DNA from: an uncultured Clostridia bacterium
Lineage (GTDB): Bacteria; Bacillota; Clostridia; TANB77; CAG-508
DNA length: 64,000 bases
Direction of reading: 5' to 3'
Assembly (NCBI GenBank): GCA_947589645.1
Contig: CANQCG010000002.1
Location: forward strand, 6,018 to 70,017
The notes under the pieces were generated by a model. The model saw nothing but the letters and a program-made list of their open reading frames with translations. It searched no databases and had not been told where the DNA came from. Shown here piece by piece: positions 37,833-38,916 of this stretch (its first letter is position 1; the number at the start of each line of letters is the position of its first letter). A program made the translations under genes and the position numbers.

Positions 37833-38090
37833 ATGGGCAAAATAGGAGAAATGAATTCTTTAATTGCTCTTAGGGATGAGAATATATTTGATTCGTTAAA
37901 ATATATTCATGTCCCAACGGCTATTTTTCATGGAAAAGAAGATAAAATATGTCCTTTTCCTATGGCAGAAATTATGCATAATAATATTCATGCTTCAATT
38001 TTATTTCCATTTGAAAATGCTGGGCATGGTACATTTTATGATGTTAAAGATGAATTTAATAGGACTTTAATAAAATTTTTAAATTATTAA
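37833..38090 (+). pseudogene. 5'-truncated alpha/beta-hydrolase gene remnant (C-terminal ~70 residues only)
   Basis: …IHVPTAIFHGKEDKICPFPMAEIMHNNIHASILFPFENAGHGTFYDVKDEFNRTLIKFLNY matches only the C-terminal His-loop region of alpha/beta hydrolases. No nucleophile-elbow region lies upstream. Confidence 0.6.
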
Positions 38091-38638
38091 TTTAATTGTG
38101 AAAATCTGTATATTTTATATTCAACACTTTTTTCTTCTAATAATTTGAAATTACAACTTAAATCTTTATAAAATTTAGACATTTTACTTTTATGTGATTT
38201 TGTAACTATATTGTAAAGTTTTTTTGATTTATCTAGAATTTTTTTTCTATTCTCGGGTTTATTGATATACGAATATTGTTCTGAAAGTAATCTTTTATAT
38301 CCATAGCTTTTGCTTTTAATGTCTAATAGATAGACACATTCTTGAGGTACAGGTATCATATCTGAAAATCTAATAATACCTAAATCATTTTTTGTTTTGG
38401 TATTTATTATTTTAAAAAAAGTTAAATTATCTTTATAAGTTTTATGTCTTTGTTTCGGAGAAAATAGAGGTGCAAAATAATAATGTTCTCTAACAACTAT
38501 TACAACTCCTATGTAAGGTCTTTTTTGATTTTTATTATATGCAATATGTTTATCAAATTGGCTTAAATAATTAATGTAATTATCATCTATAATATAAAAA
38601 TTTAATTTTCCTAATTTTATTTTCTTATTATTTTTCAT
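38087..38638 (-). CDS. toxN: Type III toxin-antitoxin system toxin, ToxN/AbiQ-family endoribonuclease
   Basis: Collinear with Pectobacterium ToxN: FY.I…Y..YL..FD…IG.V……Y.APL.SPK..H…FK…LG.I…MIP…LLD…YKR.L..Q…CNF.LLEEK. The ATG at 38638 follows GGAGG. Confidence 0.85.
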   Translation of the reverse strand: MKNNKKIKLGKLNFYIIDDNYINYLSQFDKHIAYNKNQKRPYIGVVIVVREHYYFAPLFSPKQRHKTYKDNLTFFKIINTKTKNDLGIIRFSDMIPVPQECVYLLDIKSKSYGYKRLLSEQYSYINKPENRKKILDKSKKLYNIVTKSHKSKMSKFYKDLSCNFKLLEEKSVEYKIYRFSQLN

Positions 38639-38660
38639 AAATTCCTCCATTTACAAATAT

Positions 38661-38686
38661 AGGGGATACTTTTATAAGTACCCCCT
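38661..38686 (-). terminator. Hairpin between the antitoxin repeats and toxN (attenuating terminator, as in toxIN loci)
   Basis: AGGGGATACT-tttata-AGTACCCCCT (9 of 10 bp), placed 23 nt upstream of the toxN start. Confidence 0.55.
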
Positions 38687-38694
38687 AATTTTTC

Positions 38695-38860
38695 AGGAAA
38701 CTCGTTTATAGTTAAACTAAAGGCTCGTTTCTAACCTAATGTTCAATAGGATATTCGTTTATAGAATTTTCATTCTAAAGGCTCATATCTAACCTAATGT
38801 TTAAAATGCACTTGTTTATGAAGTTAATCAAAGGTTTGTGCTAACCTAGTTTATTTGATA
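38695..38860 (-). ncRNA. toxI: Candidate type III antitoxin RNA (ToxI-like): three imperfect tandem repeats of ~52-58 nt
   Basis: Repeats on the plus strand: …TCGTTTATAG-N-CTAAAGGCTCGTTTCTAACCTAATGTT (38702-), …TCGTTTATAG-N-CTAAAGGCTCATATCTAACCTAATGTT (38755-), …TTGTTTATGA-N-CAAAGGTTTGTGCTAACCTAGTT (38812-). They lie between a promoter and the toxN gene. Confidence 0.65.
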
Positions 38861-38887
38861 AATTGCTTTATCAATATTAGTATATTC

Positions 38888-38916
38888 ATTATACTATATT
38901 TTATTTAAAAAATCAA
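38888..38916 (-). promoter_or_regulatory. Promoter of the toxIN-like locus
   Basis: Minus strand reads TTGATT (38911-38916), a 17-nt spacer, then TATAAT (38888-38893), directly upstream of the repeats. Confidence 0.6.

Follow-up and report, generated by a model that had tools for sequence, protein, structure and literature searches.

A ToxIN-family toxin–antitoxin cassette within a cotJC-splitting recombinase element of an uncultured Clostridia bacterium

The DNA analysed here (the window) is a 64,000-nucleotide stretch of contig CANQCG010000002.1 from an uncultured Clostridia bacterium (assembly GCA_947589645.1, positions 6,018 to 70,017). On its minus strand, from the −35 hexamer at 38916 to the end of a stop codon at 38087, the window holds a cassette of ~0.83 kb that is very likely to be a functional toxin–antitoxin (TA) system of type III and of the ToxIN family. 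The cassette consists of a promoter, three tandem RNA units, a terminator hairpin and toxN, the gene of an endoribonuclease toxin, and it is carried by a recombinase element that splits the sporulation gene cotJC. A first-pass annotation, made from the letters of the DNA, had proposed such a TA locus as cargo of the cotJC element. The locus is a new case of a system already well known, and none of its special features takes it outside the known kind.

Results

Layout of the toxIN cassette

The cassette opens with a sigma-A-type promoter located by consensus scan (38916–38888, minus strand, as are all parts of the cassette), which comprises a −35 hexamer TTGATT (38916–38911), a 17-nt spacer and a −10 hexamer TATAAT (38893–38888), exactly as the first-pass annotation had it. 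A perfect 8-bp palindrome, TTGATAAA-GCAA-TTTATCAA (38855–38874), marks the leader at the transcript start. It is followed by three antitoxin units, R1 (38800–38851, ~52 nt; found by motif match), R2 (38742–38799, 58 nt) and R3 (38691–38741, ~51 nt), the latter two found by the tandem-repeat program TRF. The AGG starts of the units lie at 38847, 38795 and 38737 and are spaced by 52, 58 and 51 nt (the third spacing being that to a fourth AGG at 38686), in agreement with the earlier claim of three tandem repeats of ~52–58 nt. The fourth AGG opens the terminator hairpin, whose 5′ arm starts with TAGG and resembles the start of another repeat. This GC-rich, terminator-like hairpin (38660–38687) stands between the repeats and toxN and contains 12 pairs; the first-pass annotation had listed it as a 10-bp hairpin at 38686–38661. 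Finally, the ribosome-binding site (RBS) GGAGG (38644–38648), read from the sequence and kept in relatives, precedes the 183-aa open reading frame (ORF) of toxN (38087–38638), and both it and the ATG at 38638 are where they had been placed. An alternative upstream ATG at 38650 is not conserved among relatives. The locus therefore has the layout assigned to it, showing the published hallmarks of type III loci, namely repeats in tandem that lie upstream of the gene for the toxin on the same strand with a palindromic terminator between them.

The consensus scan returned 17 promoter-like matches compared to 13.4 in shuffles. Because such sites are not rarer than in shuffles, the promoter match is weak and not significant by itself; the call gains weight because both hexamers are kept in ~50 related loci, with conservation starting exactly at the −35. 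A general repeat search picked up just the two best units. TRF gave a period of 58 nt and 1.9 copies (38695–38801, score 131), which cover the last two units. The motif AGGTTAG-N4-5-ARCCTTT recovers the more divergent first unit too and has exactly three sites in the 64 kb, all of which are located here (0.01 expected, 0/100 shuffles). The terminator hairpin, with a folding energy of −19.9 kcal/mol (z = −3.8), is the sole terminator-like site in 1.4 kb, where 0.1 would be expected.

Conservation of the cassette in related loci

We compared the cassette with 56 related loci (numbered with the prefix L) from species-representative genomes, which are gut Clostridia and Bacilli metagenome-assembled genomes from rabbit, human (Hadza, Brazil), mouse, goat and deer. 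Comparisons of the upstream region are based on the 50 loci whose upstream sequence was usable. All 50 have the promoter, the palindrome, three units kept in register, the terminator and the RBS, and the terminator is found in all aligned loci with shifts of register. We divided the substitution rate of each region by the synonymous rate of the neighbouring toxN (K/dS). This ratio is 0.99 just upstream of the −35 and falls to 0.22 in the promoter and 0.10 in the leader; it is 0.16, 0.09 and 0.06 in R1, R2 and R3, respectively, R3 being the most constrained stretch of the locus, and 0.21 in the terminator. Thus, the repeat DNA is under far stronger constraint than silent sites, and the block under constraint starts with the promoter. 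The leader palindrome has an invariant core of 6 bp and a loop that varies among the 50 loci, with no covariation; the palindrome could be a hairpin that stabilizes the 5′ end of the RNA, or an operator.

In L044, L050, L054, L055 and L056, toxN is truncated, frameshifted or internally deleted (at ~6001 or 2277), and the upstream repeats, promoter and terminator are kept. Two loci (L035, 3166–3639; L036, 8750–9247) contain a second, distant toxN homologue with 34–38% identity less than 3 kb from the first, which suggests that type III loci are clustered there. The IMG/VR viral contigs yielded no close relative, and the INPHARED phage collection yielded four distant matches, all with at most 41% identity.

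The toxin

The toxN product is a full-length ToxN/AbiQ toxin and belongs to no other family, as judged by profile, sequence and fold comparison. It matches Pfam PF13958 (ToxN_toxin) over the entire profile (positions 1–159/159; 1.2e-39, cut-off 25 bits) and the PADLOC AbiQ model with 1.9e-43; NCBIfam gave no model match for the toxin. Sequence matches to the ToxN proteins of P. atrosepticum, B. thuringiensis and E. coli in the PDB range from ~1e-19 to 1e-20 (2.3e-20 among them), and that to AbiQ is 1e-12. An AlphaFold2 model (pLDDT 81, pTM 0.80) was matched by Foldseek to the ToxN/AbiQ structures 4ato, 2xd0, 7d8o and 4glk with a probability of 1.00 and TM scores of 0.73–0.83; the next matches after these four were weak ones to MazF. 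The family assignment in the first-pass annotation is thereby upheld. Membership in the CptIN or TenpIN families was considered and rejected, since profile, sequence and fold all give ToxN/AbiQ and the Pfam search reported no CptN- or TenpN-type family for the ORF at E ≤ 1.

The toxin belongs to a compact, distinct subfamily, as 1.84 billion cluster representatives, searched exhaustively, yielded 1370 ToxN relatives, and just two full-length representatives in that set are more than 60% identical to it. Some close relatives are labelled 'type III toxin-antitoxin system ToxN/AbiQ family toxin' by NCBI. Moreover, toxN is under strong purifying selection, with a median dN/dS of 0.12 in 42 comparisons (dS 0.2–1.5 in most, 2.6 in one).

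The active site of ToxN is formed by Lys33, Thr52, Ser53 and Lys55 (PMC8860590). The residues aligned to them in the window protein are Arg40, Phe59, Ser60 and Lys62, so that three of the four are kept; an arginine replacing Lys33 is known from E. coli clusters 4 and 5 (PMC8860590). Among 115 family representatives, position 33 is Arg or Lys in 111, position 53 is Ser in 112 and position 55 is Lys in 109. Position 52 is occupied by Ser in 62, Thr in 27, Ala in 10, Glu in 5, Gly in 4 and Phe in 3; Tyr also occurs. One could read the phenylalanine, rare as it is in the family, and the pseudogenes among the relatives as signs that the toxin is catalytically impaired or repurposed and that the locus is a relic. 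We consider this very improbable: the family varies at position 52 but keeps the other three catalytic positions, the phenylalanine is fixed across this clade (APLFSPK in 107/120 relatives), and both toxN and the repeats are under purifying selection. The relic reading was rejected on the strength of this selection and of the fixed phenylalanine.

The antitoxin RNA

Each unit contains two potential stems, S1 and S2, and an inner hairpin. In R1, S1 is AGGTT (38847–38843) paired with AACCT (38836–38832) and S2 is GCAC (38841–38838) paired with GTGC (38811–38808), while the inner hairpin, TGA/TCA, is weak. In R2, AGGTT (38795–38791) pairs with AGCCT (38783–38779) in S1, GATAT (38789–38785) with ATATC (38754–38750) in S2, and TAGAAT (38777–38772) with ATTCTA (38767–38762) in the inner hairpin. 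The corresponding pairs of R3 are AGGTT (38737–38733) with AGCCT (38725–38721), GAAAC (38731–38727) with GTTTC (38701–38697), and TAGT (38719–38716) with ACTA (38712–38709). The 5′ strand of S2 sits inside the loop of S1, which makes the fold an H-type pseudoknot. We set the unit borders provisionally 4 nt before the AGG, by comparison with ToxI.

This structure, together with the leader and terminator hairpins, was derived by eye and then counted on the locus alignment. Standard pairs are formed in 95% of the alignment cells, and 17 pairs show changes on both sides, compared to 6.8 ± 1.7 in column shuffles, of which 0/500 reach 17. When the 3′ partners were slid by 1–3 columns, 6–10 both-sided pairs and 30–53% pairing were obtained. 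Since the loci share ancestry and the same sequences served to derive the structure, the slid control is the fairer one, and it is still clearly exceeded. The helices of R1 are 90–100% paired, with both-sided changes such as GCAC/GUGC, GUAC/GUAC and ACAC/GUGU. Those of R2 are 98.6–99.6% paired, and four of its six hairpin pairs have both-sided changes (for example, GC 24 / AU 19); those of R3 are 94.7–100% paired. In addition, S2 differs from unit to unit within one locus yet remains complementary to itself (GCAC/GUGC, GAUAU/AUAUC and GAAAC/GUUUC), a paralogous covariation that supports the fold independently. Nested minimum free energy folding gives S2 and the inner hairpin. The covariation foreseen as a check of the first-pass annotation is thus present, and it supports an H-type pseudoknot in every unit, with a ToxI-like AGGU...ACCUUUA core and an additional inner hairpin.

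The inserted hairpin lies between S1 and the A-rich UAUAAAC, with a stem-loop of 16 nt in R2 and of 11 nt in R3, and it is this insertion that gives the units their length of 51–58 nt. The first-pass annotation had called this length unusual. The units are indeed longer than the ToxI, antiQ and CptI models, but a survey of the toxIN family (its Table 2) lists repeat units of 31–62 nt (mean 38.1) in 1.9–5.6 copies, and both the length and the copy number (3) of the window units fall within these ranges.

An A-rich, AA(A/C)AUU-like motif is found directly 5′ of the AGG in all four linkers: AAA(C/U)U before R1, AAACAUU before R2, AACAUU before R3, where it is invariant, and AAAAAUU before the terminator. 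ToxN cuts ToxI at AA^AU and GAA^AU (PMC8860590). The linkers resemble these sites, and cleavage here would probably occur at equivalent positions. Covariation and linker conservation support in silico both the pseudoknot and the single-stranded A-rich tails. It is improbable, in our view, that the ~170-nt repeat RNA instead works unprocessed or partly processed, as one antitoxin or regulator with the divergent R1 as a non-inhibitory leader. The units are not interchangeable, being 66–74% identical within the locus while orthologous units are 85–90% identical between loci (that is, they are not homogenized), and R1 shows the lowest constraint of the three as well as the weakest hairpin, as such a reading would have it. 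Against it stand the cleavage-like motif in all four linkers and the preservation of both pseudoknot stems in every unit.

That the repeats act as DNA, as protein-binding sites or iterons, rather than as an RNA antitoxin is hardly conceivable. Tandem repeats and a palindrome near a promoter would suit such a role, but the repeats lie between promoter and terminator on the toxin strand, the compensatory both-sided changes maintain intramolecular helices including the pseudoknot stems, and the profile search of the element proteins found no replication or partition gene. The iteron reading was rejected for the transcript-like placement of the repeats and these compensatory changes.

Searches with Rfam (release 15) gave no match on the window. 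The same library gave no ToxI-type match on the canonical ToxI of pECA1039 (L060) or on three other toxI arrays (L057–L059), and its silence on the window is uninformative because it also misses the canonical ToxI. Type III antitoxin RNAs appear to be without a covariance model in that release.

The cotJC element

The cassette is located in a 4196-bp insert in cotJC (35649–39844, minus strand), whose junctions were read and compared with uninterrupted cotJC; the insert also holds a recombinase gene, and the cassette is cargo of the element. The gene is split at codon 65. Its 5′ part (39842–40039, minus strand) comprises codons 1–65, corresponds to Pfam Mn_catalase positions 1–66 and ends with a TGA created by the insertion, and its 3′ part (35211–35663, minus strand) corresponds to positions 63–197. 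With B. subtilis CotJC as query, tblastn placed residues 1–64 at 40039–39845 and residues 60–189 at 35663–35271, both on the minus strand. Both halves are downstream of cotJA and cotJB. The attL and attR cores, each GAAT, are at 39847–39844 and 35651–35648. The junctions, ...GGCACCGAAGAAT|GAGCACCAAAATGTTGTC and GACCACATTTTGGAACTAACGAAT|TAGCACAC..., together share an imperfect 22-bp repeat with the common GAAT core, and the element-side arms form the inverted repeat CCAAAATGT(T/G)GTC. In silico joining at the core gives DIGTEELAHLEM, which restores the reading frame and is the same as the uninterrupted cotJC of L002, L008, L018, L030 and L052. The split gene, the att cores, the inverted-repeat arms and the large serine recombinase together bear out the cargo relationship that had been proposed.

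The recombinase (550 aa; 35768–37420, minus strand) contains the Pfam domains Resolvase, Recombinase and Zn_ribbon_recom, and its similarity to CcrB, CcrC and XisF is below threshold. Directly upstream of its gene is a 45-aa ORF (37445–37582, minus strand) with a GCATACA motif at ~37609–37603 that is like a sigma-E/sigma-K −10 element. A 45-aa ORF is also found next to the recombinase in L013, where the motif and the RBS are kept amid diverged DNA. Profile searches gave no family match for the 45/75-aa ORF next to the recombinase, and the ORF has no similarity to the 105-aa ORF of the L010-type element. We regard the 45-aa ORF as a candidate sporulation-controlled directionality factor. Sporulation-specific excision of the element is plausible by analogy with other intervening elements. 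In B. subtilis, cotJ is expressed in the mother cell under sigma-E. The literature searched yielded no account of an intervening element in cotJC.

Two further genes in the element lie on the plus strand. The C-terminal remnant of an alpha/beta-hydrolase gene (37833–38090) converges on toxN and overlaps its stop codon, and a 187-aa ORF, orf187 (39178–39741), has no family assignment and just marginal PHROG matches.

Pieces of cotJC are found within 6 kb in 26 of the 56 related loci, and in 13 of those 26 the recombinase is at least 55% identical to that of the window. The related elements span 3.5–6.3 kb. Their commonest layout is the cotJC 5′ part, the recombinase gene in opposite orientation, toxIN, ~100 nt, the attR arm (TTGACAACATCGTGG|TACAGAAGAATTAGC) and the cotJC 3′ part, and some (e.g., L010) hold little beyond recombinase and toxIN. 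In L005–L012, L014, L017, L031, L048 and L055, toxN is followed within ~100 nt by the conserved hairpin GTTCACyyGGTGAAC with a T-run and then immediately by the attR arm; the window toxN is without this terminator of the common element type. Three loci (L012, 3789–7024; L008, 3233–6793; L002, 1–1661) have an intact cotJC that is followed by toxIN and, beyond it, by another 3′ piece of cotJC whose junction is attR-like; this could be a repaired or duplicated target. In L052, an intact cotJC is located just upstream of toxIN, and the contig ends inside toxN. The other loci (~30, including L003 and L004) are surrounded by ordinary chromosomal genes and have no recombinase within 6 kb, some of them with a toxin 93–94% identical. 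The 0.83-kb cassette is therefore a module that occurs elsewhere too.

These settings bear on the role for which the cassette was selected. A role in phage defence may be expected from its homology to AbiQ and ToxIN. With the same mechanism, the selected role could instead be addiction, whereby the cassette would kill vegetative cells or forespores that lose the cotJC element; we consider this a real possibility, at rather less than even chances. The association with cotJC pieces and similar recombinases, the elements made of little but recombinase and toxIN, and the lack of a close relative among the IMG/VR contigs are in line with it. There is also precedent, as ToxIN_Bt kills forespores that lack its plasmid and thereby raises plasmid retention through sporulation, and the type I pair txpA-ratA has been proposed to retain the excised skin element (PMC4615649). 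However, the same cassette occurs in the ~30 ordinary chromosomal settings, ToxIN and AbiQ were discovered as abortive-infection systems according to published work, and the phage-defence and addiction roles are not exclusive.

Discussion

Our analysis leads to the following model for the window locus as a functional toxIN cassette. A constitutive sigma-A-type promoter would transcribe a short leader hairpin and the three RNA units (~52, 58 and 51 nt). Most transcripts would end at the strong hairpin and read-through would yield the toxN mRNA, so that the antitoxin RNA is proposed to be in excess over the toxin. Each unit would fold as an H-type pseudoknot with S1 formed by AGGUU and A(A/G)CCU and a unit-specific S2, its core being like that of ToxI (AGGU-N8-ACCUUUA) with an extra hairpin placed between S1 and the A-rich UAUAAAC. 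By analogy with the solved ToxIN complexes, ToxN would cut the precursor in the AA(A/C)AUU linkers 5′ of each AGG and would then be held on the single-stranded tails of the processed units in a closed, inactive ribonucleoprotein. If the antitoxin supply failed, possibly through phage transcription shut-off or loss of the element, the labile RNA would decay and ToxN would be free to cleave cellular or phage RNA, the outcome being abortive infection and/or post-segregational killing.

Several points weigh against a functional cassette and temper our confidence in it. Transcription, processing, inhibition, toxicity, neutralization, the trigger and sporulation-specific excision are steps that we infer. 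The disruption of toxN in several relatives indicates that the module is dispensable in some genomes, and few representatives of the wider family (3/115) have a phenylalanine at the Thr52 position. The U-tract 3′ of the terminator (UAUAUUUGU) is weak. With regard to the RNA, the shuffle control overstates the significance of the covariation as the loci are phylogenetically related, many stem pairs are invariant across the alignment, and the folding energies of the single units are unremarkable (z = −0.9, −1.8 and +0.1); since these z-scores are not significant, the structure rests on the covariation.

Of the described systems, ToxIN of P. atrosepticum pECA1039 and E. coli (2xd0/2xdd, 7d8o) has the same order of promoter, tandem repeats, terminator and toxN and the same protein fold, at a protein identity of ~34–38%. 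The canonical ToxI repeat reads AGGU-GAUUUGCU-ACCU-UUAAG-UGCA (100% identity on pECA1039), and the pairing of the ToxI_Pa pseudoknot has been described (PMC8860590). The window units share with it the H-type pseudoknot, S1 and the start of the loop (AGGU...ACCUUUA) and the A-rich linkers. They differ in their length (51–58 nt vs 36 nt), in the hairpin inserted after S1, in an S2 of 4–5 Watson–Crick pairs, and in number and uniformity, with three non-identical units in place of 5.5 near-identical ones. The window toxin, unlike pECA1039/E. coli ToxN, has Phe for Thr52 and Arg for Lys33, and the window locus, unlike pECA1039 ToxIN, is chromosomal, its host being a low-GC spore former in which a recombinase element carries it.

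The best structural match to the window toxin is ToxN of B. thuringiensis pAW63 (4ato; TM 0.75/0.82). Both proteins carry Arg in place of Lys33 as well as a C-terminal insertion, and the host of pAW63 is likewise a Firmicute spore former, while pAW63 ToxIN is plasmid-borne and ~32% identical in protein sequence. Its ToxI units are shorter, at ~34 nt. AbiQ/antiQ of Lactococcus lactis (4glk; TM 0.75/0.83) belongs to the same family and has about three repeats, the number of which is functionally important there; it is a plasmid-borne, dedicated abortive-infection system with 27% identity to the window toxin. The antiQ repeats are shorter too, at ~35 nt. The nearest annotated relatives, with ~41% identity, are the toxIN loci of C. 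botulinum p1BKT015925, phage D-1873 and a Fusobacterium plasmid. These are on plasmids or a phage and have 37–39-nt units in ~3.2–3.4 copies, in which S1 is directly followed by UAUAAG and then S2, without the inserted hairpin. The repeats of C. botulinum p1BKT015925 are mutually divergent as well (69% matches). Thus, three features of the window locus go beyond textbook ToxIN, namely the hairpin-expanded unit, the three non-identical and individually conserved units, and the phenylalanine at the Thr52 position.

The host element likewise resembles known sporulation gene-intervening elements, such as skin, SPbeta, vfbin, vrin and gin (B. cereus gerE), in that a sporulation gene is split and joining restores the frame, a large serine recombinase is encoded, and a short shared att core is set in inverted-repeat arms. 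The closest described kind is gin, the window element being likewise without phage genes. It differs from these elements in its target, cotJC, in its size of just 4.2 kb (3.5–6.3 kb in relatives) and in its type III TA cargo.

We further put forward a speculation that is unlikely as a whole. The ToxIN clade would be the habitual cargo of mini 'recombinase + toxIN' elements by which cotJC is interrupted in many gut Clostridia, policing retention of the element in the germ line (the forespore) while it is excised in the mother cell. Separately, each of the three non-identical 51–58-nt units would be used once in closing an asymmetric 3:3 ToxN–RNA ring, with one transcript per complex, rather than serving as interchangeable monomers.

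The findings add a well-supported clade, represented in ~50 species-level genomes, to the ToxIN family. The antitoxin RNA of this clade represents a naturally occurring variant of the ToxI pseudoknot with an insertion and should be useful for understanding how RNA size sets the geometry of the toxin–RNA ring. For annotation, the cassette boundaries and the motif AGGTTAG-N4-5-ARCCTTT identify an RNA gene that no Rfam model covers. The locus also links type III TA systems to very small cotJC-splitting recombinase elements, a family without an earlier report in the literature searched. If the TA system does enforce retention of the element through sporulation, it would extend the plasmid result obtained with ToxIN_Bt to chromosomal, developmentally rearranged DNA.

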